Origin: Phycisphaerales bacterium
GTDB lineage: Bacteria; Planctomycetota; Phycisphaerae; Phycisphaerales; SM1A02
Direction of reading: 5' to 3'
DNA length: 64,000 nucleotides
Assembly: GCA_046350355.1 (NCBI GenBank)
Contig: JAXMAN010000002.1
Coordinates: 70,042 to 134,041 of the forward strand
This document shows, in pieces, positions 1,187 to 43,895 of this stretch (positions are counted from its first letter, which is position 1; each line of letters starts with the position of its first letter). Under the pieces are notes generated by a model that saw only the letters and a list, made by a program, of their open reading frames with translations, was not told where the DNA came from and did no database searches. Position numbers and translations under genes: made by a program.

Positions 1187-2326
1187 ATGTCCAAGATCTG
1201 TTCCTTCGGGCGCCTGGCGCGCCTGGCTGCCGTGGCGATGGTCGCCACCGCCGCCCCTGCGTTCGGCCAGGTGGCCGTCTGTTCGTGCACCGGCGACATC
1301 ACCGGTGATGGCGTCGTCGACGGCGCCGACCTCGGTCGCCTGCTCGGCGCCTGGGGCACCGGCTTCGCCGAGGCGGACCTCGACAACAGCGGCATCGTCG
1401 ACGGTGCCGACCTGGGCATCCTGCTGGGCGCCTGGGGCAACTGCCCCGCGCCGGCGAACGACAGCTGCTCCAGCGCGGTCGTCATCGACTCGATGGGCGG
1501 CGCGTATCCCTTCTGCACGCTCCAGACGACGACGGACGGTCCCTCGGTGAGCTCCGCGAGCTGCTCGCAGGTCACCCAGATCCACAACGACGTCTGGTTC
1601 TACTACGAGGCGCTCAGCACCGGCCAGCTCACGCTCTCCACCTGCAACGACGCGAACTTCGACACCGTCATCGCGGTCTACGGCTCGACGATCCAGGGCC
1701 TCTCGCCCTGCCCGACCGACGGCATCGGCTTCGCGACCTTCCTCGGCTGCAGCGACGACGCCGCGGGCTGCTCGAACCTCACCTCGAAGCTCACGGTGAA
1801 CGTCAACGCGGGCAGCCGGTACCGCATCCGCGTCGGGGGCTTCAACTCGATCGCGCGCGGCAACGGCGTGCTGCATGTCACCTTCACCCACCCGGGCGAG
1901 TCCTGCGACAACCCGCGCATGGCGCAGAACTTCGTCGCTTCGCAGACGATCTTCGGCAACACGACGGACAACCCGAGCATCAGCAATCCCTTCCCGTGCT
2001 TCTCCGGCCTGCCCTCGGGCGGCACCGAGTGGATCCACTGGACCTCGGACTGCTGGGGCGTCGCGACCTTCAGCACCTGCCACGACGGCACGAACTTCGA
2101 CACCATCCTGACCGTGCTCCGCTACAACTTCAACGGCCAGTGCTGGGACGAGTACCTCTCGTGCAACGACGACTCGCCGATCGTCGGCTGCCAGATCAAC
2201 GGCAACAACCGCAAGTCGTACATCCAGCGCGTCGTGCAGCCCGGCGAGGTCCTCTACATCCTCGTCTCCGGCTTCAACGGAGCCCGCGGCAGCTACGAGC
2301 TGACCATCGACCGCTCCTGCGACTGA
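1187..2326 (+). CDS. Secreted protein with N-terminal dockerin-like repeats and two PPC (pre-peptidase C-terminal)-like domains
   Basis: Signal peptide [28 protein letters not shown]. There are two DxDGxVDGADLGxLLGAWG repeats. Two roughly 130-aa repeats ([15 protein letters not shown]...[11 protein letters not shown] and [14 protein letters not shown]...GSYELTID) match the PPC pattern. Confidence 0.8.
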
Positions 2327-3083: not shown

Positions 3084-4010
3084 ATGGTGCTCGCCATGTC
3101 GACCCGTCTCCCCGTGCGTTCCCTGATCGCCGCCTCGCTCGCGGGCCTCTGCGCCGCCGCCGCCCTCGCCTCGGGCCCCGGTGGGATCATCGGGCACTGG
3201 GCCCTGGATGAGCCCGCGGGGGCGATCATGTACGACACCTCCGGCAACGGTAACAACGGCCTCTTCCCCCAGTACTTGCCACGTGTCGCGGGAGTCAGCG
3301 ACCTCGCGGCGCAGCTCGGCATGGGCTACGCCATCGTGAACGACAACCCCTCGCTCAATCCCGTCAACGCGATCACGATCTCCGCGTGGTACCGCGCGAC
3401 GATCCCGTGGGCCGGCGCGGGCAACGACCCCATCGTCGACAAGCCCTATGTCTGCCACTGCGGGGCGCCGTACTACCAGTACCACCTGGGCGTCACGGGA
3501 ACCGAGTACGGCGTCGCGCCCCGTTCGATCAGCTTCACCACCGCCGGAGGCGGGAGCGTCACGTCGCCTCCCGGGATCTTCGAGCTCGGCGAGTGGCACC
3601 ACTATGTCGCGACATCCGACGCGAACGCGTCGCGCCTCTACGTCGATGGCACGCTCGTCGCGACCGGTCCCGGCACCGGGCCGATCCCCAGCTACGGGCG
3701 CCCGATCTACATCGGCCGCTACGGAAACCTGCTCATCTACCTGCAGGGCAACGTCGACGAGATCCAGATCTACGACCGCGCGCTGACGTGCCGCGAGGTG
3801 AAGTACCTCCACGAGCACCCCGGCAGCCACCTCTTGACCATCGACACGACGCCGGCGGACCTCGACGGCGACGGCGTCGTCGGCGGCTCGGACCTGGGCA
3901 TCCTGCTTGGAAGCTGGGGCCCGTGCGCCGGCGACTGCGGCGCCGACCTCGACTGCAGCGGGAGCGTGGACGGATCCGACCTCGGCATCATGCTCGGTTC
4001 GTGGAGCTGA
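3084..4010 (+). CDS. LamG-like jellyroll (concanavalin A-like lectin) domain protein with C-terminal dockerin-like repeats
   Basis: Signal peptide MVLAMSTRLPVRSLIAASLAGLCAAAALA. LamG_3-type motifs are ITISAWYRAT, GEWHHYVATSD, LYVDGTLVA and VDEIQIYDRALTCREV. The C-terminus is DLDGDGVVGGSDLGILLGSWG ... DGSDLGIMLGSWS. Confidence 0.8.
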   Translation: MVLAMSTRLPVRSLIAASLAGLCAAAALASGPGGIIGHWALDEPAGAIMYDTSGNGNNGLFPQYLPRVAGVSDLAAQLGMGYAIVNDNPSLNPVNAITISAWYRATIPWAGAGNDPIVDKPYVCHCGAPYYQYHLGVTGTEYGVAPRSISFTTAGGGSVTSPPGIFELGEWHHYVATSDANASRLYVDGTLVATGPGTGPIPSYGRPIYIGRYGNLLIYLQGNVDEIQIYDRALTCREVKYLHEHPGSHLLTIDTTPADLDGDGVVGGSDLGILLGSWGPCAGDCGADLDCSGSVDGSDLGIMLGSWS

Positions 4011-14043: not shown

Positions 14044-14775
14044 ATGAAAGTGCAAACCCTCATGAAGACGACCACGACTCGTACCTCGCTCCTGAGCCTT
14101 GCTGCGCTGGCTCCCCTCGCGGCGGTCGCCGTGGCCAACGCCGGCCTCGCGTTCAGCTTCGCTGACCCGACCCCCGGCAAGCAGCTCCACAACGTCCAGG
14201 ACAACCACGCTGGTGCTGGCACCGGCCTGATGACCTACGACCAGGACGCTGCCATCACCTTCCTGGTGGACGGCTCCACCGAGGCGAACCCGTTCACGAC
14301 CTCGTGGACGAACGCCCGCATGGAGATGAACATGACGGTCTTCACCGGCTCGACCTCGGCTGGCGTCTTCAGCGCCCCGGTCAGCGGGTTCTTCCGCATC
14401 TATGACGCCAACACCGGCGCCACGATCGTCCGCGGCGACGCCACGGGCGGCGCGTTCCTCCGCTTCGCCGGCACGAGCACCATCCTGCTCTCCAGCGACT
14501 CGGGCTTCGCGTACACCTTCGGCCAGGCGCTGATCGACGCCCTCGCCTTCTACGGCAACGCCGGCTCCTCGCCGTTCGACCCGCAGGAAGGCAGCTTCTC
14601 GCTGACCGACGCCGTCGCCGTGAACGGTGGCGACATCATCGGCGAGGGTGGCGTGGTCCAGTCCTTCGACGCCAACGCCTCCTTCTCGGGCAACACCGAG
14701 ACCATCCCCGCTCCGGGCGCCCTCGCCCTGCTCAGCGTGGCTGGCCTGGTCTCCGCCCGCCGCCGTCGCGCCTAA
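14044..14775 (+). CDS. PEP-CTERM sorting-domain secreted protein
   Basis: Signal peptide MKTTTTRTSLLSLAALAPLAAVAVANA. The C-terminus is IPAPGALALLSVAGLVSARRRRA. Confidence 0.75.
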   Translation: MKVQTLMKTTTTRTSLLSLAALAPLAAVAVANAGLAFSFADPTPGKQLHNVQDNHAGAGTGLMTYDQDAAITFLVDGSTEANPFTTSWTNARMEMNMTVFTGSTSAGVFSAPVSGFFRIYDANTGATIVRGDATGGAFLRFAGTSTILLSSDSGFAYTFGQALIDALAFYGNAGSSPFDPQEGSFSLTDAVAVNGGDIIGEGGVVQSFDANASFSGNTETIPAPGALALLSVAGLVSARRRRA

Positions 14776-14896
14776 CCCGCGCGGCTCGCATCTCGCGAAT
14801 CACAGCCCGCCCAGGCGCATGCCTGGGCGGGTTGCTTTTTGCCGTGATGGAACCGACGTGTTGGAACCGGGGGGAGGGGGGCGCCACGCGCCCGGG

Positions 14897-17800
14897 TCAG
14901 CGGGCGCCGGCGACCGTCTGCCAGCGCTCGACGACCGCCCGCAGTTCGGGCTCGCTCGCCTCCTGGGCCTGCGGGCCGAAGAGGCGCGACTCCAGTCCCA
15001 CGATCTCCTCGCGCAGCGACTGCGCGCGGGCGGGCTCCAGGGCGGCCCCACGCTCGCGCTCCAGGCGGCGCAGCGAGGTGACGACCCCCAGCGGGGTCAG
15101 GCGCGCGGGGGCCCACGCCGGGGCGGGCGCGGCCTCGCGGCGCTTGGTCCAGTGACGGGCCAGCAGCACCGCCCCGCCCAGCAGCGCGGCGAGCGCCGCG
15201 GCGATGACCAGGCGGATCTGCGTCCAGCCGCCGCCGGCGACCGCGACCGTCGAGCCCTTCACGGGCACGATGTCCAGGTCGGCGTAGGCGCGCGACTCGA
15301 GCGTGGCGTCCACGCCAGGACGCAGGACCGGCAGCGTGAAGACGCTCCCGATGTCCCCGCCGGCGCGCGTGTAGGTCACCGTGTAGGTGCGCTCGATGGG
15401 CAGGTGGAAGATGCCGTTGCTGTCCGCCTCGGGGTAGCCGTCCTTGGGCTCGGCGCTCGGCGACATCATGCCAAAGCGCGAGGGCATCGCCGCATCGCCC
15501 GCCTGCATCACCACCATCGGCGCGGCGGCGATGCCGTCCGCGCCGAGCGTGTAGCCGGCGAGCGGCGCGTCGACGCCCTGCAGGATCTCCTGCAGCGCGG
15601 GGGGGACGCCCTCGCCCTTCACGCGCACTTCCAGCGTGACCGTCTGCTTGCCCTGCGCGAGCCCCTCGGCGCCGCGCACATCGACCAGCTGCGCGACCTC
15701 CAGCTTCGTCACCGGGCGCGGTGCGGCATCGTCGCCGCTGGCCAGCAGCGGCGTGTTGCTCGGCAGCGCCAGCGAGACGGGGCCCGTCTGGTCCGTGAAC
15801 TGCATGTCCAGCGTGACCGAGGGCAGCCGGTCCGTGACCGGCTCCTTGCGGCTGAGCACCACGTAGGCCATCGGCTTCTCGAGCCAGCCGTCCTGCCCCG
15901 CCTCGACGACGCCGCGCGGGGGCATGAAGGGGTCGAAGAAGCCGATCGCCTGCACATCGAAGGCGCGCGTGAAGGCGTCCTCGAGGGCCTTCTGCACCTG
16001 GTCGCGGTAGTTGATCTGCCGGTAGTTGTTGCCGACGCGGCCGAAGACGCCGTTCTGCAGGTACTTCGAGAAGCCGCCCGTCTCGCGGTCCACGGAGTGC
16101 GTGTAGCGCAGCGAGACCAGCACGCCGAAGGGCTTGCCCACGCCGACATGGTCCGGGCCGTCGAGCGTCAGGCGCAGCTTGATCTCGTCCTTCACCAGGT
16201 CGCGGTAGAGCTCCTGCATCGCGCGCAGGCCGGCGCCCGCGGGATGGTCGCCGATCACGCGCAGCGCGTGGTGCACCAGGCGCGGCTTGACCTCGGGATC
16301 GGCGCGCTCGATCGCGCCCTGCACGGCTGCGGCGAAGGCGGCCATGTGGCGGTCGTAGTCGTCGCGCGCGAGCGTCTGCAGCGACTTGCGCAGCAGGTCG
16401 ACCTGGTCGTCCTGGAGCGTGCCCTCCTTGGGCAGGTCGTCCACGCGCAGGAAGTTGAGCTCGGCGGTGCCCATCGCGGCGCCGAACCAGCGCAGGTGGA
16501 TGCTCGGATCGTCGCGCACCTTGCCCGCCTGCAGCGCGGCGATGTACGCGGTGGCAGCCTGTGCGAAGGCGTCGAAGGCGGCCTGCCGGTAGGCGCCGGT
16601 CTTCTCCGCGTCGGCGCCGGGCTGCTGCTGGCGGAACTGCATCCGGTCGAAGGTGAGCGCGGCCTTCATGGAGGCCAGCTCCCACGATCCCGGCTCGCGG
16701 GCGATCGCCGCGTCGGCGAGGTCGATCGCGACTCCGTAGCCCTTGTCCACGAGCGCGGCGATCTCGTTGTCCGAGCGCTTGGTGCCGGTGGCCTTCTGCG
16801 CGGCGCGGTTGCGCCAGTCTCCGTTGAGGCTGCTGCCCATGCGCTCGGCGAGCATCGCGGCCGTGGCGGGGGGCATGCCGCCGATGGGGCCGAAGACGCG
16901 CTCGATGTCGGCGCGGTCGTAGACCTCCGTCGAGGCGTGGCAGGCCATGAAGGCCGGGACGAGCCCGGGGAGCGCGCGCGCCTCGACGCCGTGCTCGCGC
17001 AGCGTGGCCAGGAGCGTGCCCAGGCGCTCCAGATTGCGCCGCTGCCGTCCGCGCGTGAGCGGCGCCATCGGCATCGCGTCGCGGTAGAAGGCGAAGTACT
17101 GCATCATCTCCGGCGGGTACTCCTGCACCGGAGTGAGGCGGATGCGCCACTTCTGGAGGAAGTCGTCCGCGAAGGAGGCGGCGTCGGCGGGGGAGCGGTC
17201 GATCGCGGTGTCGAGCATCGCCAGCGCCTGGTCGGTCTCGTCCGCGGTGGTCGCGAGCGCGATGCACGCCTTGCGCGCGCGCGAGGCGAGCGAGGGCTCG
17301 AGCGCCTGCAGCCACTTCTCGTTGGGGATCGCGCGCAGCAGGAGCTGCGCCTCGCGCGCGACCATGCGGTTCTGGCCGCGGCGCGAGACCGCCTGCTCCA
17401 TCTCCTGCACCAGCGCGGCGGTGACCATGCGCAGCGGCACGCGCAGCGAGGCGATGTCGATGTCCTCGCGCGCCAGCAGCAGGTCCACGGCCTCCTTCAG
17501 GCCCAGGAGCGCCTGCGCGCGCTGCTCCGTCTCCAGGCGCTGCTCGCCGACGCCGGTGGCGGCCAGCGCGAGCGCCTCGAGCGCGGCGGGGCCGAGCGAA
17601 GGATTGGCGAAAACCTTCGTGAGCCAGGGGCCCGCCTGCGCGCGCGGGACGCGGCTCATGAGGTCGATCGCCATCTTGAGCGCCTCGCGGCGCACGGCGA
17701 GGGTCTCGCGGTCGATCAGTGCGACGTCGCAGAAGATCTGCCAGGCCTCCAGGCGCAGCGCGTCCGCCTCGGGGCTGTCGCCGGCCTTCTCGGCGAGGTC

Positions 17801-18847
17801 GAGCTTGTAGCGGCCGTGCGCGTTCATCTGCGAGCCGTCGCCGGCGGCGCGCGCGGCCTCCAGCGGCGGGAGGAACTCGTAGGCGGGGCCGATGAGCCCG
17901 GCGCCGACGAGCAGCTCGACGGTGCGGCGGCGCGCCTCGGGGGTCGCGGTGCCGAAGGAGCGCGTGCCCTTGGCGAGCATCGCGAGCATCGGGCCGGTGC
18001 TGTACTTGGCGGATGCCGACTGCAGCATCTTGCCGAAGGCCTGCATCTGCCAGGGCTTGAGCTCGCCCGGCGAGGCGTCGGCGAGCGCGATCACTTCCTC
18101 GGGAAGCAGGCCCGCGTCGCCGCGGTTCATCGCCTGCAGGATCGCGGCGTAGACGGGCTCGGACTCGATGGCGGGACGCGAGGCGAGGAACTCCGAGAGC
18201 ACGCCCCATTCGCCGGCCATCGTCTGCAGGTGCAGCCAGCGCGCGAGGTCCTGCGGCTGCGCCGTCTCGGGGTTGGGGTTCGCGACCTGGCCGAAGCCCA
18301 GCTTGCTGCGCGCGGCGAGCACCGCGGCGGGCTTGCGCGCGAAGTCGAGCTCGCGCATCGCGTTGGCGATCTGCTGCCCGCGCTGGATCTGCGCGTTGCG
18401 CGCGGCGGTGATGCCCAGCGCGGCCTCGAGGTCGACGCCCAGGTCGGTGTAGTACGCGCGAAGCTGCTCCTGCTCCGCCTCGCTCGCGGCCGTGTAGAGC
18501 GCCTTCAGCTCCGCCAGCTCCGCCGCGGAAAATATGCCGGGCATGCCCGGCATATTTTCCGCGCCTTCGGGGGGTGCGCCGGGGGTGCCGGGGCGCACGA
18601 CGGCGCCGGCGGGCGCGGCTGTGCCCGGCATCGTCTGCGGCGCGGTCGCCGCGCCTGCGGGCTGCGCGGGCACCACCTGCACGGTTCCCGACTGCACCGG
18701 CACCGCCTGCGCGGGCGCGAGCGGCGTCGCCGGGACCGACTGCACCGTCACTTGCGCGGGCGCCGCGCCCGCGGGTGCGAGGACGAACGCCGCCATGGCG
18801 GCGCGGGACCAGATGCGCGAGTCGTGGATTCGCGTGCCGCGTGTCAT
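14897..18847 (-). CDS. BatD-like oxygen-tolerance protein, unusually large (about 1316 aa), with C-terminal TM anchor
   Basis: Last gene of the Bat operon. The C-terminal TM is WTQIRLVIAAALAALLGGAVLLARHW, followed by a charged tail. The first roughly 100 aa are A/P/Q/V low-complexity and include the 34-nt palindrome in-frame (ENMPGMPGIFSA), so the true start is uncertain (18847 or 18799). Confidence 0.65.
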   Translation of the reverse strand: MTRGTRIHDSRIWSRAAMAAFVLAPAGAAPAQVTVQSVPATPLAPAQAVPVQSGTVQVVPAQPAGAATAPQTMPGTAAPAGAVVRPGTPGAPPEGAENMPGMPGIFSAAELAELKALYTAASEAEQEQLRAYYTDLGVDLEAALGITAARNAQIQRGQQIANAMRELDFARKPAAVLAARSKLGFGQVANPNPETAQPQDLARWLHLQTMAGEWGVLSEFLASRPAIESEPVYAAILQAMNRGDAGLLPEEVIALADASPGELKPWQMQAFGKMLQSASAKYSTGPMLAMLAKGTRSFGTATPEARRRTVELLVGAGLIGPAYEFLPPLEAARAAGDGSQMNAHGRYKLDLAEKAGDSPEADALRLEAWQIFCDVALIDRETLAVRREALKMAIDLMSRVPRAQAGPWLTKVFANPSLGPAALEALALAATGVGEQRLETEQRAQALLGLKEAVDLLLAREDIDIASLRVPLRMVTAALVQEMEQAVSRRGQNRMVAREAQLLLRAIPNEKWLQALEPSLASRARKACIALATTADETDQALAMLDTAIDRSPADAASFADDFLQKWRIRLTPVQEYPPEMMQYFAFYRDAMPMAPLTRGRQRRNLERLGTLLATLREHGVEARALPGLVPAFMACHASTEVYDRADIERVFGPIGGMPPATAAMLAERMGSSLNGDWRNRAAQKATGTKRSDNEIAALVDKGYGVAIDLADAAIAREPGSWELASMKAALTFDRMQFRQQQPGADAEKTGAYRQAAFDAFAQAATAYIAALQAGKVRDDPSIHLRWFGAAMGTAELNFLRVDDLPKEGTLQDDQVDLLRKSLQTLARDDYDRHMAAFAAAVQGAIERADPEVKPRLVHHALRVIGDHPAGAGLRAMQELYRDLVKDEIKLRLTLDGPDHVGVGKPFGVLVSLRYTHSVDRETGGFSKYLQNGVFGRVGNNYRQINYRDQVQKALEDAFTRAFDVQAIGFFDPFMPPRGVVEAGQDGWLEKPMAYVVLSRKEPVTDRLPSVTLDMQFTDQTGPVSLALPSNTPLLASGDDAAPRPVTKLEVAQLVDVRGAEGLAQGKQTVTLEVRVKGEGVPPALQEILQGVDAPLAGYTLGADGIAAAPMVVMQAGDAAMPSRFGMMSPSAEPKDGYPEADSNGIFHLPIERTYTVTYTRAGGDIGSVFTLPVLRPGVDATLESRAYADLDIVPVKGSTVAVAGGGWTQIRLVIAAALAALLGGAVLLARHWTKRREAAPAPAWAPARLTPLGVVTSLRRLERERGAALEPARAQSLREEIVGLESRLFGPQAQEASEPELRAVVERWQTVAGAR
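18527..18560. repeat. 34-nt perfect palindrome GGAAAATATGCCGGGCATGCCCGGCATATTTTCC, copy A (extends to 40 nt with CGC/GCG flanks)
   Basis: Exact inverted repeat. AT-rich arms and a GC core in a 70% GC genome. It is read in-frame within the BatD-like ORF. Confidence 0.9.
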
Positions 18848-18863
18848 CGGTTGTTCCTGAGAT

Positions 18864-19736
18864 TCACCAGCCGTCGCCGATCTCGCCGTTCATGCCGGCT
18901 CCGTTTCTGGGCTGATCGCCCGGGCGCTTGCCCTTGCCCTTCTTCTTCTGCTTCCCCGGCAGGCCGCTGTTGCAGTTGCCGCCCGGGCAGTCCTTCGGGC
19001 GCGGACGCATCAGGAGCTGCTCGATCGAGCTCTGCTCCAGGTTCAGCACCAGCTCCCCGTTGCGCTCGAGATCGATCGCCGACTGCGGATCGCCCCCCGT
19101 CGCGCGCGCGCGCTCCGACAGGTAGCGGTAGTTCTGTCGCGCCAGACCGGAGAGCTCGCGCCACTCCGCGGTGGGCTTGCCCGCCATGCGCATCAGGCGC
19201 GCGCCGTAGTAGTAGGCCGTCGCCAGCTCGTTGCGCGCGGCCAGCACCAGCGGGCTCCCCTGGGTCTGCGGGGTCTCCGCGGTCTCCAGCAGGTCCTCCA
19301 GCTCCAGCGTGCCCGCCTCGATCTGCCCGGCGCGGACGCTCGCGCGCGCGTGCGCCAGCCGCAGCCGGTCGCGCAGCGCGGGATCGCCGTCGCCCACCAG
19401 CTCCTTCGCCGCCTGGATCGTCTCGGCGGTCGCCGCCCACGCGGTCTTCGCGGCGGAGGCGGTGCGCTCCTCCTCCTGCTCGGCGTCGCGCACGGCGGCG
19501 TTGAGCGCGGGATCGCTCGTGCCGGCCGCGGCCATGCGCGCGGCGATCGCGCGCAGGTGCGCCTGGTAGGCGGTCTCCTGCAGCGCGGCGGCAGAGTCCT
19601 GCTCGCGCTCGGCGCGCGTGACGATGCGCGCGGCCTTGTCCTCGTTCCAGAGCTGCTGCCCCGGCCCGAAGTGGTAGGTGACCAGCGCCACCGGCACGAG
19701 TGCCCAGACGGTCCATCCGAGGCGAGAGAGGATCAT
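18864..19736 (-). CDS. BatC-like TPR/helical repeat protein with N-terminal TM
   Basis: MILSRLGWTVWALVPVALVTYHF is a TM helix, followed by helical repeats and a C-terminal Lys/Gly-rich tail. It sits in the operon between BatB and BatD. Its ATG overlaps the BatB stop (ATGA). Confidence 0.65.
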   Translation of the reverse strand: MILSRLGWTVWALVPVALVTYHFGPGQQLWNEDKAARIVTRAEREQDSAAALQETAYQAHLRAIAARMAAAGTSDPALNAAVRDAEQEEERTASAAKTAWAATAETIQAAKELVGDGDPALRDRLRLAHARASVRAGQIEAGTLELEDLLETAETPQTQGSPLVLAARNELATAYYYGARLMRMAGKPTAEWRELSGLARQNYRYLSERARATGGDPQSAIDLERNGELVLNLEQSSIEQLLMRPRPKDCPGGNCNSGLPGKQKKKGKGKRPGDQPRNGAGMNGEIGDGW

Positions 19737-25743: not shown

Positions 25744-26520
25744 ATGACGACGCTCCTGCTTGCCCCGGTGGTGCTCGCCCTCACGCCTCCGATGCCGCTG
25801 CAGCCGGTCTCCGCGACGGGGTCCAGCTGGGTCATCGCGACCGCCTCGGGCGTGGGCAACATCTACGAGTCGCGCACCCTCGTGCTCGGCGACCTGCTCA
25901 AGGGGTTCGAGTCGGATGTCGTGGCGACGGGAACCTCCAGCGTCGGCACCGCGGACACGCACGCGCGCCTGCTGCGCGGCGGGCTTGGCTGGCGGCTGAT
26001 CGCCGGCGGCGGCGGCGACACCTCGGTCGGCGGGGGGCAGAGCGCCTTCTCGCGAGCGGATGTGAGCGCCTCCGTGGAGTTTACGCTGGAGCGCGCGGGA
26101 CGCATCGGGCTCGCATGGGACCTCGGGGCGTATGGCATCAGCTCGGGCAATGTGCGGCTGGTCCGCCTGCCGGTCGTGGCGGGCAGCACGCTCTCCGAGT
26201 CGTGGGTGAGTTCCTACATCGTTCCCGACCTCAACTCGGGATCGGCCGTGCTGGAGCTGCCCGCCGGCAGCTATCGCCTCCAGGCGTCCGGCACGACGCA
26301 ATGCAACTCGGGCTTCGCGAACCCGGACACCGGCCGGTACGACCTGCAGGTCGACCTCGTCGCGCTCGACGCGCCCGACCTCAACGGCGACGGCGCGATC
26401 GACGGCGCGGACCTCGGCCTGCTGCTTGCCGGCTGGGGCACCGCCGACGCCGACCTCAACGGCGACGGCACCACCGACGGCGCGGACCTGGGCCTGCTGC
26501 TGGCGCAGTGGGGGAACTGA
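25744..26520 (+). CDS. Secreted protein with C-terminal dockerin-like repeats
   Basis: Signal peptide MTTLLLAPVVLALTPPMPLQPVSA. The C-terminus is DLNGDGAIDGADLGLLLAGWG ... DLNGDGTTDGADLGLLLAQWGN. Confidence 0.7.
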   Translation: MTTLLLAPVVLALTPPMPLQPVSATGSSWVIATASGVGNIYESRTLVLGDLLKGFESDVVATGTSSVGTADTHARLLRGGLGWRLIAGGGGDTSVGGGQSAFSRADVSASVEFTLERAGRIGLAWDLGAYGISSGNVRLVRLPVVAGSTLSESWVSSYIVPDLNSGSAVLELPAGSYRLQASGTTQCNSGFANPDTGRYDLQVDLVALDAPDLNGDGAIDGADLGLLLAGWGTADADLNGDGTTDGADLGLLLAQWGN

Positions 26521-33831: not shown

Positions 33832-33865
33832 GGATAATATGCCGGGCATGCCCGGCATATTTTCC
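33832..33865. repeat. 34-nt palindrome copy B (one mismatch: GGATAAT) with an extra degenerate left half-site (GAAAATACGCC) at 33817-33827
   Basis: It lies in the divergent intergenic region, about 20 nt upstream of the AIM24 ATG. Confidence 0.85.
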
Positions 33866-34090
33866 GCGCGACGGGGTCCGATTCTTCGAAGAAGCCGCCC
33901 GGGAGCGCGGGGCGCGCGCACGACCGCCGCCGCGCCGCGCGCGCTGCGGCATCCGCGCGTCTGGGGCGTGCGCCGCGCGAGTTCTCCGAAGACCCGGCAC
34001 GCGCGCGTGCGCACGCGCGCGCCGAGCGCATTTGTTCTGCGGGGAAGCATCGCCGCTTGCGATGCGCACCTGCGTTTGTAGGCTCGGTTC

Positions 34091-34426
34091 ATGCGATTCC
34101 GCATTCGCGGACGCGAGCGCGACAGCGATGAAGTCGTCGAGCTGGATGTGGAGGCGACGAACTCCCTCGAAGCGCTCGAGTCCATCCGATCCCAGGGAGT
34201 GGAGCCGTTTGGCATCATCGGCATCGCTCCCCACGAACCACCCCGCGCCGGGGGCCCAGGGGCGGCGCTCTGGGTCCTCGGTGGCGCGGCGCTGATCGCT
34301 GCGACCGCGCTGCTCGTGTGGACGCTCTTCCCGGCGCCGGCATCGGCGCCGGACCGCGCGCCGGACCACGCGCCCGACCACGCGGCGCAGGCCGACGCGC
34401 CACCGCCCTCCGCGGCAGGTGAGTGA
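34091..34426 (+). CDS. Hypothetical small protein with C-terminal TM
   Basis: MRFRIRGRERDSDEVVELDVEATNSLEALESIRSQG... then ALWVLGGAALIAATALLVWTLF. Weakly supported. Confidence 0.4.
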   Translation: MRFRIRGRERDSDEVVELDVEATNSLEALESIRSQGVEPFGIIGIAPHEPPRAGGPGAALWVLGGAALIAATALLVWTLFPAPASAPDRAPDHAPDHAAQADAPPPSAAGE

Positions 34427-34490
34427 CCGTGCGCGCGGGCGAGGTCTGGCCCGCCCAGGCCGCCCGCGCCGCCGCATCTACGATGCGCGC

Positions 34491-35012
34491 ATGCTCACAC
34501 GACGATCCCCGATCGGCACGCCCCGAAGCGGCGCCGCGCACGCCGCGGTGCTCGCCGCGACGCTCGCCGCCGCCGGCGCGCTTGCGGGATGCGCCACGCG
34601 CCCCGCGACGCCCGCGAAGCCCGCCTACGACGCCGCGCTCGCGAAGTCGCTGGGCGCGAACGCCAACGGGATGCGCTCCTACATCTTCGTGCTCCTGCGC
34701 ACCGGCCCCAAGCGCATGCCCGACGGCCCCGCGCGCAACGCGATGTTCGAGGGGCACATGGCCAACATCCAGCGGCTCGCGAAGGAGGGCAAGCTCGTCC
34801 TCGCGGGCCCCTTCGACGGCAAGGACGGCTGGCGCGGGATGTTCGTCTTCGCGGTCGCGACGATCGAGGAGGCGAAGGCCTGCGTCGACACCGATCCCGT
34901 CATCCAGAACGGCGAGATGGTCGCCGAGTACCACACCTGGTTCGGCAGCGCCGCGGTGATGCAGGTGACATCGATTCACGAGCGCCTGGTGGCCCCGCAG
35001 CCCGCCAAGTAG
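34491..35012 (+). CDS. YciI-like domain lipoprotein
   Basis: The lipobox is LAGC. The YciI-like pattern is NAMFEGHMANIQRLAKEGKLVLAGPFDGKDGWRGMFVFAVATIEEAKACVDTDPVIQNGEMVAEYHTW. Confidence 0.6.
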   Translation: MLTRRSPIGTPRSGAAHAAVLAATLAAAGALAGCATRPATPAKPAYDAALAKSLGANANGMRSYIFVLLRTGPKRMPDGPARNAMFEGHMANIQRLAKEGKLVLAGPFDGKDGWRGMFVFAVATIEEAKACVDTDPVIQNGEMVAEYHTWFGSAAVMQVTSIHERLVAPQPAK

Positions 35013-35133: not shown

Positions 35134-37359
35134 ATGAGCATCGCCGCCTTCTCCGCCCGTGCCGCGATCGCGGCGACGGCGGCCCTCGGATGCGCCGCCT
35201 TTGCACAGGTCGACCCGGGGGACTGTGGCGCCTGCTGCGCCGTGCCGCCGCAGGTCTCGGGCTTCACCGCGCCCGCGCTTGTCAGCACCATGGGCGGCGT
35301 CGTCGGCTCGGACTTCGTGGTCCACGCCTTCGGCGTCGGCGGCTGCACCACGCAGCCGCCCGGTCCGTGGGTCAACCCGCCCGCGTTCCGCCATCCCGAC
35401 TGGACGCTCGCGAAGCTCGGCTCGGTCTTCGGCGTGACCGTCGACAGCCAGGGCAACGTCTATGTCGCGCACACTTCCGTCTACGACATCGACGCGCTCG
35501 GCACCGTCGGCGGCGGCGGGGCGGGCGCGATCTACAAGCTCGACAGCGCCACCGGCACGCCGAGCCTCTTCTGCACGCTCCCGAACTCCGCGCCCTGCTC
35601 GACGCCCGGCACCTTCTGCGCGCCCGGCATCGGCAACCTCACTTATTCCTGCGAGCACCACTGCATCTACGCGACCGACTTCGAGGACGGCCGCATCTAC
35701 CGCATCAGCATGACCGGCGCGCTGCTCGAGGCCTACAGCTTCGGCGACCAGGCGATCCAGAGCGCGGCGCCGATGCAGAACGACCCCATCGGCATCGCGC
35801 CCTGGGGCAAGCGCACCTGGGCGGTGGCGGTCGCGGGCGACCGGCTCTACTTCAGCGTCGTCCGCGCGGACATGAGCTACTTCCCGCAGATGCCCGGCGG
35901 CCCGCCGGGACCGCCGTATCCGCCGCCGGCCGCCGACCAGGAGATCTGGAGCATCCCGCTGACGCCCGTGACCGGCGCATTCGCGAGCGGCAACTCCACG
36001 CTCGAGATCCGCGTGCCCAAGTGCAACGTCGGCATCGTCAATCCCTTCAACACGCCGCTGCCGCCGGGCATCCTCTCGAACCCCGTCTCCGACATCGCCT
36101 TCGACGGCGACTGCTGCATGTACCTCGCCGAGCGCACGATGAACGACGCGACGACGACGGGCGCGCACTGCTCGCGGCTGCTCAAGTACTGCCGCGGCAC
36201 CGACGGGACGCCGTGGTCGCCCTCGAACGACCTCTTCGAGGTGGGGCAGACCACCTGCTCGAACATCTCGCTGGCCGCGCCCAACTCCGACGCGGGCGGC
36301 GTGGGCATCGATCCCAGCACCTGCAACCTGGTGTGGACGACCGCCGACTACATGGAGATGCCCTGGTGCAACGGCCCGGGCTGGTACTACGGCATCAACG
36401 GCCTGCCGCTCACCGGCGGCGTGAACGCCGCGGGCCTGCATATCGACATGAACGGCGACGTGAGCTACTTCGACAAGACGCGCATCGGCAGCGTCGAGGT
36501 CGCATGCCGCGTCGCGGATCCGTGCACGGCCAGCGCGGTGGCGACCTGCCATCTTGGCCCCGACGGGCTGCCCGACGGCACCTACGACCTCTCGATCACC
36601 GTGCACAACGGGCTCGACGGGCAGGCCGCGAACTTCATCCTGCTGCCGGATCTGGGCACCTACATCCCGCTGGTGCCGCCGCTGAATCCGGGCGAGTCGC
36701 GCAAGCTCACGACGACCGTCACGGGGCAGGGGCCGGGCACGCTCACGCTCGACATCGGCCTCTTCAACAGCTTCGGCGCCGATGGGCAGTGCTGCGGCAT
36801 CCTCGATGTCGAGGTGGAGCTGCCCGACTGCGACTGCATGCTCGTCGAGCACCTGACCGTCGACTGCACGGACGACCGCGATCCGACGACCTTCTGGTAC
36901 GACGTGCAGTTCACGGTGCGCAACACGAGCGCCTTCGTGGCCTCGCACTTCTTCATCATCCCGGTCTCCGCAGGCGTGACGACCGTGCCGCAGTACGTGG
37001 CGCTGCCGGCGCTGCTGCCGGGCCAGACCGCGCCGATCTCGTTCACCCTCAAGTTCCCCGGTCCGCCGCCGGTCGGACCCGACGGCCTCTGGCACACCTC
37101 GATCAGCTTCAGCATGCACAGCGCGAACCTGGCGATCTGCTGCAAGAAGGTCTGGGAGATCAGCGGTCCGCGCGAGTGCGCCGCGCCGCTGCTGGGCGAC
37201 CTCGACGGCGATGGCGATGTCGACGGCGCCGACCTCGGCCGCATGCTCGCGGCGTGGGGCGCCGCGGCGGCGCCCGGCGCGCCGGGCGACCTCAACGTCG
37301 ACGGCACGGTCGACGGCGTGGATCTGGGCGTGCTGCTGGGCGCGTGGGCGCCCCGCTGA
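35134..37359 (+). CDS. Large secreted protein (741 aa) with C-terminal dockerin-like repeats
   Basis: Signal peptide MSIAAFSARAAIAATAALGCAAFAQ. The body is Cys-rich with beta-propeller-like motifs (NVYVAH, RIYRIS). The C-terminus is [23 protein letters not shown] ... DLNVDGTVDGVDLGVLLGAWAPR. Confidence 0.8.
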   Translation: MSIAAFSARAAIAATAALGCAAFAQVDPGDCGACCAVPPQVSGFTAPALVSTMGGVVGSDFVVHAFGVGGCTTQPPGPWVNPPAFRHPDWTLAKLGSVFGVTVDSQGNVYVAHTSVYDIDALGTVGGGGAGAIYKLDSATGTPSLFCTLPNSAPCSTPGTFCAPGIGNLTYSCEHHCIYATDFEDGRIYRISMTGALLEAYSFGDQAIQSAAPMQNDPIGIAPWGKRTWAVAVAGDRLYFSVVRADMSYFPQMPGGPPGPPYPPPAADQEIWSIPLTPVTGAFASGNSTLEIRVPKCNVGIVNPFNTPLPPGILSNPVSDIAFDGDCCMYLAERTMNDATTTGAHCSRLLKYCRGTDGTPWSPSNDLFEVGQTTCSNISLAAPNSDAGGVGIDPSTCNLVWTTADYMEMPWCNGPGWYYGINGLPLTGGVNAAGLHIDMNGDVSYFDKTRIGSVEVACRVADPCTASAVATCHLGPDGLPDGTYDLSITVHNGLDGQAANFILLPDLGTYIPLVPPLNPGESRKLTTTVTGQGPGTLTLDIGLFNSFGADGQCCGILDVEVELPDCDCMLVEHLTVDCTDDRDPTTFWYDVQFTVRNTSAFVASHFFIIPVSAGVTTVPQYVALPALLPGQTAPISFTLKFPGPPPVGPDGLWHTSISFSMHSANLAICCKKVWEISGPRECAAPLLGDLDGDGDVDGADLGRMLAAWGAAAAPGAPGDLNVDGTVDGVDLGVLLGAWAPR

Positions 37360-37364
37360 CCTCC

Positions 37365-37398
37365 GGAAAATATGCCGGGCATGCCCGGCATATTTTCC
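37365..37398. repeat. 34-nt palindrome copy C (exact)
   Basis: It begins 6 nt after the stop of the 35134..37359 gene and ends 12 nt before the next ATG. Confidence 0.9.
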
Positions 37399-37409
37399 AC
37401 CCGATCCGG

Positions 37410-38327
37410 ATGACCGCAGAGCAGACGATCCAGCGTCCGATCCAGCCGCCATTCGCCAGCGCCGCCTGTCCGCGCTGCGGGCATCGGTGCGAGATCGATC
37501 CGGAACAGCCGCTCGCGCCGGTGCGGTGTCCGGATTGCGGGGGGGAGTTCGTTGGTGGGCGGGTGTGGGACGTCGCGCTCGCGGATCCGGCCGCGCGTCG
37601 GCGCTTCGCGTGGGCGCTGATCGTTGGTGGAGGGGCGTGCGTGCTTGGGATAGTCGCTCGAGAGGCGGGCCCGGTGCTCGTCGCGCTGGGTGTGCAGGTC
37701 GCCCGCGACGGACGCGGTTTTCAAAGCGCATGGATTGAACCGCTCCTGACGCTGATGGCGCATGTCGCGCAGTTCGTTTCCATCCCGGCGCAGTGGATGC
37801 TGCTTCGTGCTGGCCTGGCCGAGGCACGGCGCCCGCGCGCGATCTGGGCAGCGTGGGCGTGGCTGGTCGTGCAGTCGCTGTGCGTGTTGTTCAGCCTGCT
37901 TGTCCTTGCGGTGTGGATGAAGGATCGCGATCCGGGACAGTTCAGGCAGATGCAGGCGACGTATGAATCGATCAGCGGGTCGCTTGGAGGCGTGCCGGGG
38001 AACCTGCACCTTTCGATCGCGTTCGCCATCCCGGCGGGCGTGGCCATCATGCTCCTGCTCCTGGGCCTGCCTTCCCCCGGTTTGGTCGGACGATCGGTGA
38101 AGTTGGCATGCTTGATCATCGCCGCTGGCATCGTGCTGCCGTTCATGGTCCGCAGTGCGATGTCGATCCTGTCTGCGGTGGACTCAAACACGACCGTGCA
38201 GTTGGCCCAATCGGCCGCGTTCCGCGTGATCCACAGCGCAGCCACGCATTGGATCCCGTCTGCCACTGTCGCCATCGGCGGACTCATGCTCCTGCGGACG
38301 GGGATCCGCATGCGGGGCGCGCGATGA
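37410..38327 (+). CDS. Polytopic membrane protein with N-terminal C4 zinc ribbon
   Basis: MTAEQTIQRPIQPPFASAACPRCGHRCEIDPEQPLAPVRCPDCGG is followed by 5-6 TM helices. Its stop overlaps the next start (ATGA). Confidence 0.7.
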   Translation: MTAEQTIQRPIQPPFASAACPRCGHRCEIDPEQPLAPVRCPDCGGEFVGGRVWDVALADPAARRRFAWALIVGGGACVLGIVAREAGPVLVALGVQVARDGRGFQSAWIEPLLTLMAHVAQFVSIPAQWMLLRAGLAEARRPRAIWAAWAWLVVQSLCVLFSLLVLAVWMKDRDPGQFRQMQATYESISGSLGGVPGNLHLSIAFAIPAGVAIMLLLLGLPSPGLVGRSVKLACLIIAAGIVLPFMVRSAMSILSAVDSNTTVQLAQSAAFRVIHSAATHWIPSATVAIGGLMLLRTGIRMRGAR

Positions 38328-38911
38328 AGCCCCGCGCGCCGCGCCGCCTCCGCATCGCCGCGTGGATCGCGATCGCGGTCGCGCTCGGGGCGGCCACGCT
38401 GCAGGTCGCGAGCGTCCGCTGGTCGATGCGCTACGCCTTCGAAGCCGGCCCGCTCAGCGTCTCGCTTGACGCGGCCGATGGGCTCGCCGCGATCTGGGTC
38501 GCGACCAAGACGGGCGTCATGGGCGTCTACGACGTGGGCTGGCACGCCTCCCGCACTTCGCCGGCGCCGGACGAGGGGATCTTCGGTCGCGCGCTCGGCG
38601 GCTCCTGGCGATGGATCCTCGCCGAAGGCGGCAACGAGGTCATCCCGCCGCACGCGCACACGGTCTGGCGGCTGCCCGGCATCATCGAGTACGAGAGCGA
38701 TCCCGGCATGTGGGCGGATGGCGGCGTCGCGCGCACGCTCTCCTTCGTGGTGTGGCCGATCCCCGTGATCGCCGGCGCCTGCGCCTGGTGGCTTTTCGGC
38801 GCGGCGCGCCGCGCGCAGCGGCGCGCGACGGGTCGATGCGTCCGCTGCGGCTACGACCGGACCGGCGTCGCCGCGGGCGCGTTGTGCCCCGAATGCGGCA
38901 CCGCCGCCTGA
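38324..38911 (+). CDS. 2-TM membrane protein with C-terminal C4 zinc ribbon (family member)
   Basis: The N-terminal TM is MKPRAPRRLRIAAWIAIAVALGAA. The C-terminus is WWLFGAARRAQRRATGRCVRCGYDRTGVAAGALCPECGTAA. Confidence 0.7.
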   Translation: MKPRAPRRLRIAAWIAIAVALGAATLQVASVRWSMRYAFEAGPLSVSLDAADGLAAIWVATKTGVMGVYDVGWHASRTSPAPDEGIFGRALGGSWRWILAEGGNEVIPPHAHTVWRLPGIIEYESDPGMWADGGVARTLSFVVWPIPVIAGACAWWLFGAARRAQRRATGRCVRCGYDRTGVAAGALCPECGTAA

Positions 38912-38942
38912 AAATATGCCGGGCATGCCCGGCATGTTTTCC
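38909..38942. repeat. 34-nt palindrome copy D (two mismatches: TGAAAAT... and ...CATGTTTTCC)
   Basis: It overlaps the TGA stop of the 38324..38911 gene. The next gene's ATG is 31 nt downstream. Confidence 0.85.
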
Positions 38943-41077: not shown

Positions 41078-41149
41078 GCGGGTGTAACTCAGTGGTAGAG
41101 TGCCACCTTGCCAAGGTGGATGTCGAGGGTTCAAGTCCCTTCACCCGCT
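41078..41149 (+). tRNA. tRNA-Gly (anticodon GCC)
   Basis: GCGGGTG-TA-ACTC-AGTGGTA-GAGT-G-CCACC-TTGCCAA-GGTGG-ATGTC-GAGGG-TTCAAGT-CCCTT-CACCCGC-T. The cloverleaf has a 7-bp acceptor stem, a GTTCAAGT T-loop and a GCC anticodon. No CCA is encoded. Confidence 0.9.
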
Positions 41150-41446: not shown

Positions 41447-41580
41447 GTGGTCCCCCGGCGGTTCAGGTTGTCGGCAAGGCGATCGCTCACGCAGGGCTCC
41501 TGCGGGGCGACGCGCTCATCGTCGCATGCGCAGGGGCGGTGTCAAGCGGGCGGGAAGGGAATCTGAACTACGCTGCGGGC

Positions 41581-42057
41581 GTGCGCTTCCTGAAGCGGCT
41601 GACGATCCGGCTCCGGTGGCCAGCGGTGGTGGTGGCCGCCGCATTGCTAGCCGTCATCGCGCTGTCATGTCGCTATTCGTGGTTCGGCAGACTGCAGTGG
41701 GGGAACTCGACCTGGTCGCTGGGGGTCAACGCCACGGTCGTCGGGGGCCGCTGGAATGCGGACGTCTATCGGGACAACCTCGAGTACTTCCAATGGTTGG
41801 GACGGGCCGATTGGTCCGCATGGAGCATGGGAACCTACTTCGTCGCGAAAGCCTATGAGGACGTCCTGGCAGGCGCGTGGTTCGCGATGTGTCCGATCTG
41901 GTGGCTTGCGCTTCCGCCTGCGCTGCTCGCAGTCGCGGGCTTCCGCCTGAAGCGCCGCGAACAGACGCCCGGCCAGTGCAAACGCTGCGGCCACCCGCTA
42001 GCCGGCGCGGTGGTGTGCCCCGAGTGCGGCACGCCTGCGCCAGCATCGGCCGCGTGA
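41581..42057 (+). CDS. 2-TM membrane protein with C-terminal C4 zinc ribbon, tandem paralog 1 (GTG start inferred)
   Basis: VRFLKRLTIRLRWPAVVVAAALLAVIALS is TM1. The middle is a W-rich loop. TM2 is WWLALPPALLAVAGF. The tail is RLKRREQTPGQCKRCGHPLAGAVVCPECGT. Start is placed at the conserved GTG shared by the three paralogs. Confidence 0.6.
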   Translation: MRFLKRLTIRLRWPAVVVAAALLAVIALSCRYSWFGRLQWGNSTWSLGVNATVVGGRWNADVYRDNLEYFQWLGRADWSAWSMGTYFVAKAYEDVLAGAWFAMCPIWWLALPPALLAVAGFRLKRREQTPGQCKRCGHPLAGAVVCPECGTPAPASAA

Positions 42058-42259
42058 GCACGCGTCGACCGCGCGAAGAGTTATCTCAGCGGCCACTCGC
42101 ATCGCCGATTTGGACCAGATTTGGACCAGCGCATCCGTGCGCGTGTGTTTCCGTCTGCGCGTATCCGTCGCGACTATCGGCACTCAACCCCTTGTCCCCG
42201 CGTGCGTTGTGTGCTGATGTGTTCCGAAGTGGTGCGGAGTGCTACGCGACATTTCGCAC

Positions 42260-42306
42260 TTTGCCAAGGTGGATGTCGAGGGTTCAAGTCCCTTCCCCCG
42301 CTCTCC
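42260..42306 (+). repeat. Direct copy of the 3' half of tRNA-Gly (anticodon loop to 3' end plus 4-nt trailer), 45/46 identity
   Basis: TTGCCAAGGTGGATGTCGAGGGTTCAAGTCCCTTCCCCCGCTCTCC versus tRNA TTGCCAAGGTGGATGTCGAGGGTTCAAGTCCCTTCACCCGCTCTCC. Confidence 0.85.
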
Positions 42307-42307
42307 T

Positions 42308-42340
42308 GACGGCGCTCTGACGAGCGCCGTCTTTCGTTTT
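42308..42340 (+). terminator. Intrinsic terminator following the tRNA-fragment copy
   Basis: GACGGCGCTC-tgac-GAGCGCCGTC followed by TTTCGTTTTGG. Confidence 0.5.
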
Positions 42341-42452
42341 GGCATGCGGGGGAACTGATCGCTTCGAGCTGCCGCGCTGCGACACGCCGACGCCCGTGCG
42401 CGGAGGGCCGGTGTGGGGCGAACAACGTGGGGGCGCTCACTACGCTGCGCGC

Positions 42453-42941
42453 GTGCGCTTCCTGAAGCGGTTGACGATCCGGCTCCGGTGGCCCGCTGCG
42501 GTGCTGGTTGGGCTGCTCACACTCGGATTCGTCTGTTCGGCTTTCTGGGGGTGTCGAGTCGACCTGAGCTTCCTCGGGAGTTGGTGGATCCTCGACCTTG
42601 GAAACACGATCGCCACCCTCACTCAATACGATTCACAGCTCGATCCTGGGCGACCCTCTCCGGATTTGGTTGTGACCGGCTACTCAGTCAAGTGGTATCC
42701 GATCGAGGATTTCGACCTCTTCCTCAATGCGTGGGTCCGGAAGGGATCTTGGCCGGGGGTCGACTGGGTCGCACGGCTGCCACTCTGGTATCTCGCACTA
42801 CCTCCGGCCCTGCTCGCCATCGCGGGGTTTGTCATGAAGCGCCGCGAACCGAAGCCCGGCCAGTGCCAGCATTGCCGCCACCCGCTCGCCGGCGCGGTGG
42901 TGTGCCCCGAGTGCGGCACGCGACCACTCGCCGCGTCCTGA
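42453..42941 (+). CDS. 2-TM membrane protein with C-terminal C4 zinc ribbon, tandem paralog 2 (GTG start inferred)
   Basis: VRFLKRLTIRLRWPAAVLVGLLTLGF... The C-terminus is LAIAGFVMKRREPKPGQCQHCRHPLAGAVVCPECGT. Confidence 0.6.
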   Translation: MRFLKRLTIRLRWPAAVLVGLLTLGFVCSAFWGCRVDLSFLGSWWILDLGNTIATLTQYDSQLDPGRPSPDLVVTGYSVKWYPIEDFDLFLNAWVRKGSWPGVDWVARLPLWYLALPPALLAIAGFVMKRREPKPGQCQHCRHPLAGAVVCPECGTRPLAAS

Positions 42942-43141
42942 TCTCGCCTTGAATCCAACGAGCTGCCTCCGCTGCCACTCATCACGCAACATCGGCCCCT
43001 CCGCCGTCCCGTAATCGCATTCGTTGACTGTCGCGCGTGACTCCACGCGCGTTCAATGCGACGCTCTGGTTGCCGCGGAGTGCGCCACCGGCCATCCGCG
43101 CACGCCCGCTCATCCACTCAATCGCCCCACCTCCCCCAACC

Positions 43142-43831: not shown

Positions 43832-43895
43832 GGGGTCGGGCGGCGGGGGACGCTGCGTCCGATGGCGAAGAAACCTCCCGCGATACGCTGCCTTC

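Follow-up and report, generated by a model that had tools for sequence, protein, structure and literature searches.

The locus considered here raises the question of whether a perfect DNA palindrome can lie inside a translated gene, or whether the gene in which it appears to lie starts only behind it. The stretch of DNA that was analysed (hereafter the window) comprises 64 kb with a G+C content of 71% from contig JAXMAN010000002.1 of a Phycisphaerales bacterium (assembly GCA_046350355.1). It contains several copies of a 34-nt palindrome, and one of them, copy A, falls within the 5' part of a long minus-strand open reading frame (ORF). The first-pass annotation regarded this ORF as a BatD-like gene and offered two readings: either the palindrome is tolerated as a 12-codon insertion in a linker, or the real start lies downstream, the upstream part of the ORF being an artefact of high G+C content and the protein being devoid of a signal peptide. 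Our analysis supports the former in part: copy A is quite probably a genuine in-frame intragenic copy of a lineage-specific dispersed hairpin repeat, which is read through and tolerated in the linker of the host protein.

Copy A within the reading frame

18527-18560, no strand assigned: perfect 34-nt core of copy A, GGAAAATATGCCGGGCATGCCCGGCATATTTTCC (sequence search, hairpin fold)
18524-18563, no strand assigned: extended perfect palindrome of 40 nt, in which the CGC/GCG flanks pair too
18524-18559, minus strand: 12 codons, GAA AAT ATG CCG GGC ATG CCC GGC ATA TTT TCC GCG, encoding residues E97-A108 (ENMPGMPGIFSA)

Within the minus-strand ORF 14897-18847 copy A reads as E97-N-M-P-G-M-P-G-I-F-S-A108 (18559-18524) without any frameshift, just as had been noted from the raw sequence. 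The stop-free design ascribed to the element is also real: none of its three frames contains a stop codon, and, because it is a palindrome, this applies to both orientations. The codon composition of the element sets it apart from the gene around it. Four of the 12 codons (GAA, AAT, ATA, and TTT) end in A or T, a property shared by 3.45% of the remaining 1304 codons (binomial P = 5.6e-4); the ATA is the sole ATA codon of the host gene, and TTT accounts for two of its 36 phenylalanine codons. The DNA at this place has therefore been shaped by something besides the codon usage of the gene. Copy A and its flanks were found at 100% identity in independent Logan contigs, L127 (SRR14234082) and L128 and L125 (both SRR26348422). 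Since the same junctions occur in independent assemblies from other samples, copy A is not an assembly artefact of this metagenome-assembled genome (MAG).

The host gene, its start and signal peptide

14897-18847, minus strand: host gene, 1316 aa, hypothetical protein U0625_06685 in the NCBI annotation; C-terminal transmembrane helix, no Pfam family
18755-18847, minus strand: codons 1-31, N-terminus resembling a Sec-type signal peptide, MTRGTRIHDSRIWSRAAMAAFVLAPAGAAPA followed by QV (heuristic assignment; conserved in contigs L137 and L138)
18854-18858, minus strand: Shine-Dalgarno-like AGGAA, 6 nt before ATG 18847 (identical in L137 and L138)
18864-19736, minus strand: upstream operon gene, 290 aa (exact product on Logan contigs L125/L126, both of which run into the palindrome)

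The ATG at 18847 is also the start given in the NCBI annotation of U0625_06685. From this codon through the palindrome, the G+C content at third codon positions (GC3) amounts to 0.88-0.94 in the frame of the ORF, the upstream gene using another frame, and the AGGAA motif is placed 5 nt past the stop codon of that gene (TGA 18866-18864). In a metagenome contig of a sister lineage from JGI (L137), which shares 91% nucleotide identity with the window over 4.5 kb, the AGGAA and ATG as well as the initial ~50 codons are preserved nearly unaltered, and the two linker indels that distinguish this contig from the window, of 3 and 9 nt, are both in frame.

Homologs of ~1300 aa number 113, and 93 of them, having both a start codon and the anchor motif, were used for comparing the N-termini. 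A hydrophobic N-terminal segment was found in 90 of the 93 and an AxA-Q-like cleavage site in 73. The orthologs follow a common plan, namely a signal peptide, repeats of the VPA(V/Q)R type, an A/P/G-rich linker, the motif [PA][FL][ST]P[AE]E..ELK and, 21 residues later, MRAYYADLGVDL; thus they carry a signal peptide and a linker upstream of the helical domain instead of starting downstream, which had been named as an observation that would speak against the reading through the repeat. The window protein, beginning with MTRGTRIHDSRIWSRAAMAAFVLAPAGAAPA and continuing after the cleavage site with QVTVQSVPATPLAPAQAVPVQ, is built on the same plan. Its N-terminus has the features of a Sec-type signal peptide: four Arg among residues 1-15, a hydrophobic 10-mer scoring 2.01, and an APA-Q site at residue 31. 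Here, as in the orthologs, signal peptides were judged by heuristics (hydrophobic 10-mer and AxA-Q site) only.

Judged by this GC3 periodicity, the AGGAA motif, the conservation in L137, the ortholog plan, and the matching plan of the window protein, ATG 18847 appears to be the true start and the N-terminal ORF to be real. The first-pass annotation was right in recognizing an ORF with a signal-peptide-like N-terminus but set its start too far downstream: ATG 18847 lies 17 codons upstream of the 'MAAFVL...' at which it had begun the protein.

The assignment of the product to BatD did not hold. The host protein matched no Pfam family, BatD (PF13584) included, either as a whole at E<=0.01 or as two halves at E<=1, nor did the 290-aa upstream gene give a Pfam match. 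Only the position in the operon resembles the Bat/MoxR arrangement: a MoxR AAA+ ATPase, a DUF58 protein, a 298-aa protein, two VWA proteins and the 290-aa protein are followed by the host gene as the last one. This layout, together with the signal peptide and the C-terminal transmembrane helix, recalls Bat operons.

Two further observations concern the 5' end of the host gene. An ENA contig (L138; ERZ27268159 k141_52564), corresponding to window positions ~18755-19300, has the same end of the upstream gene, the same Shine-Dalgarno sequence, and the same first 31 host codons, beyond which a 133-aa His/Gly-rich ORF (P0130) stands in place of the linker; either the assembly is chimeric or the variant arose by recombination. 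In the sister lineage the JGI gene call for the host gene begins at an internal Met (P0127).

Place of copy A in the protein

18560-18754, minus strand: linker, codons 32-96, rich in A/P/Q/V/G, with VPA(Q/R) repeats, predicted to be disordered (pLDDT 43-58)
18485-18526, minus strand: start of the conserved helical domain (A108-AELAELKALY..., helix 1 being residues 108-120; alignment, AlphaFold)

An AlphaFold2 model of the first 330 residues, calculated with an alignment of 41 sequences (mean predicted local distance difference test score, pLDDT, of 81), gave pLDDT values of 43-58 for residues 1-100 and above 94 from residue 111 on. Residues 97-108, encoded by the element, are predicted to be the last ones of the disordered linker, abutting helix 1. 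The linkers of the orthologs carry homologous VPAxR repeats, and their median length is 79 residues (range 51-120), compared with 97 in the window protein. The surrounding 100 codons had been described as being of low complexity. This is correct for the ~75 codons upstream; downstream, the helical domain follows at once. The idea of a 12-codon insertion tolerated in a linker is likewise supported in part: the disorder prediction and the orthologs agree with the location and with read-through, while a clean insertion is not demonstrated, as discussed below.

Copies outside genes

33832-33865, no strand assigned: copy B, one mismatch (perfect in ENA contig L140), intergenic, 20 nt upstream of the start of an AIM24-family gene (33811, minus strand)
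37365-37398, no strand assigned: copy C, no mismatches, 5 nt past the stop codon 37357-37359 and 11 nt before ATG 37410
38909-38942, no strand assigned: copy D, two mismatches, its first 3 nt being the TGA stop codon of gene 38324-38911

With up to two mismatches allowed, the element occurs four times in the window and was not found in any of 100 shuffles. Copies B, C, and D are intergenic by codon-position G+C; copy D is followed by a DUF2652 gene starting at ATG 38973 or, according to the NCBI Prokaryotic Genome Annotation Pipeline (PGAP), at 38934. A 23-mer scan of metagenome contigs added three further copies, all of them intergenic: one (L111) between an FtsK-like C-terminus and a deaminase gene, one (L112) upstream of a cupredoxin-like gene, and one (L113) between two convergent stop codons. 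The same 23-mer had no matches in viral contigs. The genes around the L113 copy match, with full or >90% identity, U0625_00325/00330, which lie on a different 1.48-Mb contig of this MAG; the family is therefore dispersed within this genome. Thus, of the seven loci known (four in the window and three in metagenome contigs), six are intergenic and copy A alone is intragenic. For copies C, D, L111, and L113 the distance to a stop codon is 0-19 nt. Neither a target-site duplication nor any flanking direct repeat was found around the seven copies, and Rfam 15, applied to the window at the gathering threshold, gave nothing at the palindromes, its sole match being the tRNA gene 41078-41149.

The possibility that the ATG of the element is systematically in frame with downstream genes was considered and rejected: this is the case in three of five copies, which is not above chance, copies B and C being out of frame.

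Several gene calls nevertheless make use of the element. PGAP starts U0625_06770 at GTG 37344 and so reads copy C as GKYAGHARHIF, and it starts the DUF2652 gene at ATG 38934, within copy D; ATG 37410 and ATG 38973 look more plausible as starts. The JGI call for the deaminase at the L111 locus (P0121, 164 aa) begins at the ATG of the element. Since gene callers start in, or read through, copies C and D and the copy before the L111 deaminase, with P0127 as a further case, the annotated N-termini near such copies need checking.

Beside copy B, ~690 nt without coding periodicity (33868-34554) are absent from a 95%-identical sister contig (L139), where the distance between the neighboring gene and the element is only 44 nt; the palindrome forms the boundary of this structural variant.

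Hairpin structure and conservation

Folded as RNA, the 34-mer forms a 15-bp stem with a CAUG loop (-25.2 kcal/mol, z = -6.6). With an A-tract and a GC stem followed by AUAUUUUCC, it is laid out in the manner of a bidirectional intrinsic terminator.

How the intergenic elements change can be seen from their orthologous copies in sister lineages. A Logan contig (L141), aligned to the window without gaps at 88.6% identity, spans exactly the region from copy C to copy D; in these two copies 56 of the 57 visible element nucleotides are identical, compared with a divergence of 11.4% in the flanks. In L139 copy B reads GGAAAAATATGCC...GGCACATTTTTCC, that is, it has gained an A in one arm and a T in the other, symmetrically, in addition to one mismatch. 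At the L113 locus, contigs L117 and L124 differ at three of the 34 nt, G·U pairing being preserved at two of them. Such orthologous copies show the element to be long-lived. On this small and uneven sample, intergenic copies seem to diverge no faster than their mostly coding flanks and tend to stay symmetric, a generalization that we hold loosely. Equally tentatively, these data would agree with a structural role of the element outside genes and with its being no more than tolerated within one, since the intergenic copies stay symmetric and the intragenic one has lost one arm in L137. The most fitting description of the element is that of a REP-like, terminator-like hairpin repeat (REP, repetitive extragenic palindromic).

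Origin of copy A

Taken together, the observations can be arranged in the following scheme. The usual home of the repeat would be the short gap just past a stop codon, between genes or at gene ends, where the intergenic copies most likely act as RNA, namely as REP-like, bidirectional terminator-like, or mRNA-end-protecting stem-loops. The host gene, translated from ATG 18847, would consist of a Sec-type signal peptide, a disordered A/P/Q/V linker of ~75 residues, and the conserved helical domain, with the palindrome forming the last 12 codons of the linker, directly ahead of helix 1. Ribosomes should read through copy A, ENMPGMPGIFSA being tolerated. Copy A is presumably old, as the 91%-identical sister lineage has it in the same place and with the same length, one arm having diverged and the hairpin having been lost. 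It may have arrived as an insertion of 30 or 36 nt or by conversion of a native quasi-palindromic stretch coding for xPGxPG.

The two sites compare as follows:

window: GAA GGC GCG GAA AAT ATG CCG GGC ATG CCC GGC ATA TTT TCC GCG
L137: GAA GGC GCC GAC ATT GCG CCG GGC ATG CCC GGC ATA TTT TCC GCG

At the protein level these are EGA-ENM-PGMPGIFSA and EGA-DIA-PGMPGIFSA, of equal length. The 28 nt of the center and right arm are identical, and all six differences fall in the left arm. From the shared site and length it follows that copy A predates the split of the two lineages. In L137 the hairpin is destroyed and the reading frame kept. That the six differences are gathered in one arm does not settle the matter, as the adjacent linker is 25-40% diverged anyway.

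Several observations weigh against parts of this scheme. As to the RNA, a scan for the terminator consensus did not flag the palindrome, because its U-run is short (4 nt) and paired with the A-tract. Three intergenic copies stand only 11-30 nt before the next co-directional gene, a position which speaks for an intercistronic stem-loop of the REP type, serving as a stabilizer, attenuator, or processing site, rather than for a strong terminator. The divergence of the element between sister lineages is uneven (0-9% per copy) and, when pooled, not clearly below that of the flanks. As to the insertion, the next ortholog, P0002 (69% amino acid identity, locus L114), aligns with a gap of 8 residues at the element, and F106-S107 (TTT TCC) coincide with the conserved [FL][ST] of the orthologs (PFTP, AFSP, GLTP). 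This coincidence counts against a simple 36-nt insertion, because such an insertion does not predict a match to the motif. The alignment of orthologs, which had been proposed as a check for an indel of exactly 12 residues, thus gave a different picture: no indel in L137 and 8 residues in P0002, so that a clean 12-codon insertion is not demonstrated.

These facts bear on an alternative that we consider unlikely but worth serious attention, namely that there was no net insertion of 12 codons and that a native xPGxPG-I/L-F/L-S/T stretch was overwritten by ectopic gene conversion from an intergenic copy or by hairpin-templated strand switching, the palindrome becoming perfect in the window lineage. 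The small gap in P0002 would agree with it, as would the Phe-Ser of the element, which matches the [FL][ST] motif at a constant distance from the MRAYY anchor. In P0002, moreover, GCG CCG GGG GCG CCC GGT GCG (APGAPGA) stands a few codons upstream of the site; the 24-kb locus L114, in which this ortholog lies, contains neither a copy of the element nor a similar palindrome. The 20-nt core ATGCCGGGCATGCCCGGCAT, itself a perfect palindrome coding for MPGMPG, was found by a scan of genome contigs in at least 110 unrelated GC-rich genomes, including Streptomyces, Nocardioides, and Mycobacterium, in many cases within longer ATGCC[CG]GG[CG] runs read as (MPG)n; the full element was present in none of the genomes among the matches listed for this core. 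PG-rich low-complexity coding DNA thus seems to be intrinsically palindromic, and, the core being plain MPGMPG-coding DNA, a native xPGxPG linker is quasi-palindromic and resembles the core of the element. Finally, a single templated event would place all six L137 differences in one arm. On the other hand, the linker near the left arm evolves fast (~25-40% divergence), which makes six ordinary substitutions plausible, the window linker exceeds the ortholog median by 18 residues, and an intermediate allele was not seen among the compared lineages. Copy A may thus have arrived either as an insertion of 30-36 nt at the boundary of linker and domain or by overwriting of a native PG stretch: the former is favored because of the length of the linker (97 residues versus the median of 79), the latter because of the Phe-Ser coincidence and the small gap.

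A possible shorter allele

The ends of some Logan contigs at copy A call for an explanation. Assemblies with k = 31 are expected to break ~27 nt into the palindrome owing to fold-back, and L127 does so, at 18553. In SRR26348422/23, however, contig L129 ends at 18528 and contigs L125/L126 end at 18559, which is 2 nt into the core from each side. A simulation of the 31-mer graph reproduced the ends 18528/18559 exactly, and did so only when a second allele without 18529-18558 was present, i.e., an allele 30 nt (10 codons) shorter, in frame, with the junction CGCGG/CCGCG (with flanks, GAAGGCGCGG/CCGCGGCGGAG). This end pattern may be due to a real in-frame polymorphism or to skipping of the hairpin by the polymerase during library preparation. 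Two other candidates were rejected: an allele shorter by 36 nt fails to reproduce the contig ends, and a mixture with the sister-lineage allele gives 18551 in the simulation instead of 18528/18559.

It is conceivable, although we regard it as doubtful, that this Phycisphaerales clade actively maintains the palindromes as a structural element. Correction templated by the hairpin, or gene conversion between copies, would keep them symmetric, and they could overwrite coding DNA resembling their GC-rich core (xPGxPG linkers) or be excised from it symmetrically. If this were true, copy A would be polymorphic in nature, with filled and 10-codon-shorter alleles, and would be a present-day case of a hairpin repeat that moves in frame into and out of a protein linker. 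The 30-nt-shorter allele, if real, would in itself be a natural test case for the in-frame gain and loss of a palindrome.

Regulatory explanations

Could the hairpin inside the gene have been kept in the window lineage because it is useful, either by pausing translation between the signal peptide/linker and the folded domain or by attenuating transcription where the operon ends? In favor of such a role, copy A has remained perfect over 40 nt amid a fast-evolving linker, and the RNA around it folds with -52 kcal/mol over 91 nt; yet the sister lineage lost the hairpin and kept the frame, and orthologs do without it, so we consider such a role improbable.

More improbable still is that the palindrome serves as a double-stranded DNA operator of a dimeric regulator, the copies marking its regulon and copy A being an intragenic site. 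The dyad symmetry is indeed perfect, and copies B, C, D, L111, and L112 stand 11-60 nt upstream of a gene start. The identity of 34-40 nt, including the center, however, goes far beyond the typical length of an operator, the flanking genes are incoherent (AIM24, DUF2652, deaminase, P-II, cupredoxin-like, and dockerin-repeat proteins), the L113 copy lies between two convergent stop codons, and the symmetric lengthening of both arms by 1 nt is tolerated.

The weakest explanation is a true start at or after the palindrome (e.g., at M99 or M102), with the 96 codons upstream being artefactual and the signal peptide absent: although ATG codons occur inside the palindrome, with GAAGG 10 nt before the first of them, and gene callers do begin other genes within the element (DUF2652 at 38934 by PGAP, the 164-aa deaminase by JGI), this second reading of the first-pass annotation is refuted by the in-frame GC3 of 0.88-0.94 upstream of the palindrome, the conserved Shine-Dalgarno sequence and ATG 18847, the in-frame indels of the sister lineage, the signal peptide and linker found across the orthologs, and the replacement of M99 by Ala in L137, and is hardly credible.

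Comparison with known repeats

14803-14834: intrinsic terminator with a 14-bp GC stem, a GCAU loop, and a CUUUUUG tail (-38 kcal/mol over 61 nt)

The preferred reading, a dispersed hairpin repeat of which one copy is carried in frame, invites comparison with several known systems. Like the REP sequences of Proteobacteria, the element is a short dispersed palindrome (~35-40 nt in REP) found in intergenic gaps after stop codons and within operons, and it would form a stable RNA stem-loop of the sort thought to protect mRNA 3' ends or to terminate weakly. Its size, 34 nt perfect and 36-40 nt with the flanks, falls within the 20-40 nt of a REP unit. Unlike REP, it is a perfect palindrome, occurs as single copies and not as pairs in BIMEs (bacterial interspersed mosaic elements), and resides in Planctomycetota; the tetranucleotide GTAG/CTAC, which in REP/RAYT systems is conserved at the 5' end and serves as the recognition site of the RAYT transposase, is absent from the element and its immediate flanks. 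[quoted passage not shown]

In-frame intragenic repeats are known, as exemplified by Rickettsia palindromic elements (RPE) and other in-frame MITE insertions (reviewed in PMC10969869). The former resemble copy A in being palindromic repeats that lie in frame in genes and are tolerated as a surface or linker peptide (PMC10969869). In contrast to RPE, which are ~100-150 bp long, encode conserved peptides of 30-50 aa and have nearly half of their copies within genes, the Phycisphaerales element measures 34-36 nt, encodes 12 aa, and is intragenic in one of seven known copies, so that it does not qualify as an RPE. Terminator-like dispersed repeats such as SPRITE share with it the resemblance to an intrinsic terminator (PMC10969869), but they are unrelated in sequence, size, and host, and here a short U-tract pairs with an A-tract in a bidirectional arrangement.

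With bidirectional intrinsic terminators the element has in common the succession of A-tract, GC hairpin, and U-tract and the position after stop codons, including that between convergent genes (L113). Ordinary terminators, unlike the element, are not identical in sequence between loci: the one clear terminator of the window, 14803-14834, situated between the convergent ends of gene 14044-14775 (plus strand) and the host gene (stop 14897, minus strand), has a different stem and a CTTTTT tail. Mycobacterial repeats of the MIRU type reside in operon gaps with their ends overlapping the flanking stop and start codons and are tandem-type units of 46-101 bp, not palindromes. Copy D is similar to them in that it provides the upstream gene with its TGA and the downstream gene with in-frame ATGs, the difference being that the Phycisphaerales element is a palindrome. 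Template-switch mutation at quasi-palindromes is a mutational mechanism and not an element family; it would explain both the clustering of the differences in one arm and the symmetric +A/+T change.

In function and position, REP elements and terminator-like repeats such as SPRITE appear to be the nearest counterparts of the family. The element is a dispersed hairpin repeat, occasionally in frame within genes, and belongs to no named family. The phenomenon is known in principle; of interest are the phylum in which it occurs, the perfection of the palindrome, the long time over which it seems to have been maintained, and the possible 30-nt in-frame polymorphism. To our knowledge, REP-like, terminator-like hairpin repeats have not been described in Phycisphaerales before. 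The case of copy A, kept across lineages that differ by 9% in nucleotide sequence, suggests that a disordered secretion linker can carry a hairpin repeat over a long time.

Other features of the window

1293-1437: dockerin-like repeat
3856-4006: dockerin-like repeat
26375-26513: dockerin-like repeat
37196-37349: dockerin-like repeat
50285-50445: dockerin-like repeat

A dockerin-like repeat of 64-95 nt, reading D-L-[ND]-G-D-G-x-[IV]-D-G-x-D-L-G-x-L-L-x-x-W-G, is present in at least five genes at these sites; ORF 35134-37359 gives a weak match to Pfam Dockerin_1. The region 41567-44376 contains three paralogous segments (157 nt with 70-80% identity and 69 nt with 78-91%) spaced by ~0.9-1.5 kb, which suggest a small tandem gene family just downstream of the tRNA gene 41078-41149. 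At 58971-59583 the plus strand carries repeats of CTTCTTCTC(G/C)TC with a 15-nt period; they encode a K/E/D-rich low-complexity tract of the large minus-strand ORF 57429-61466. Genes for peptide chain release factor 2 frequently contain, close to the 5' end, a programmed +1 frameshift, and the minus-strand ORF 61913-63001, with strong GC3 and beginning with ...KMEAPDFWGDQKAAQRTIDELK, presumably encodes this factor.

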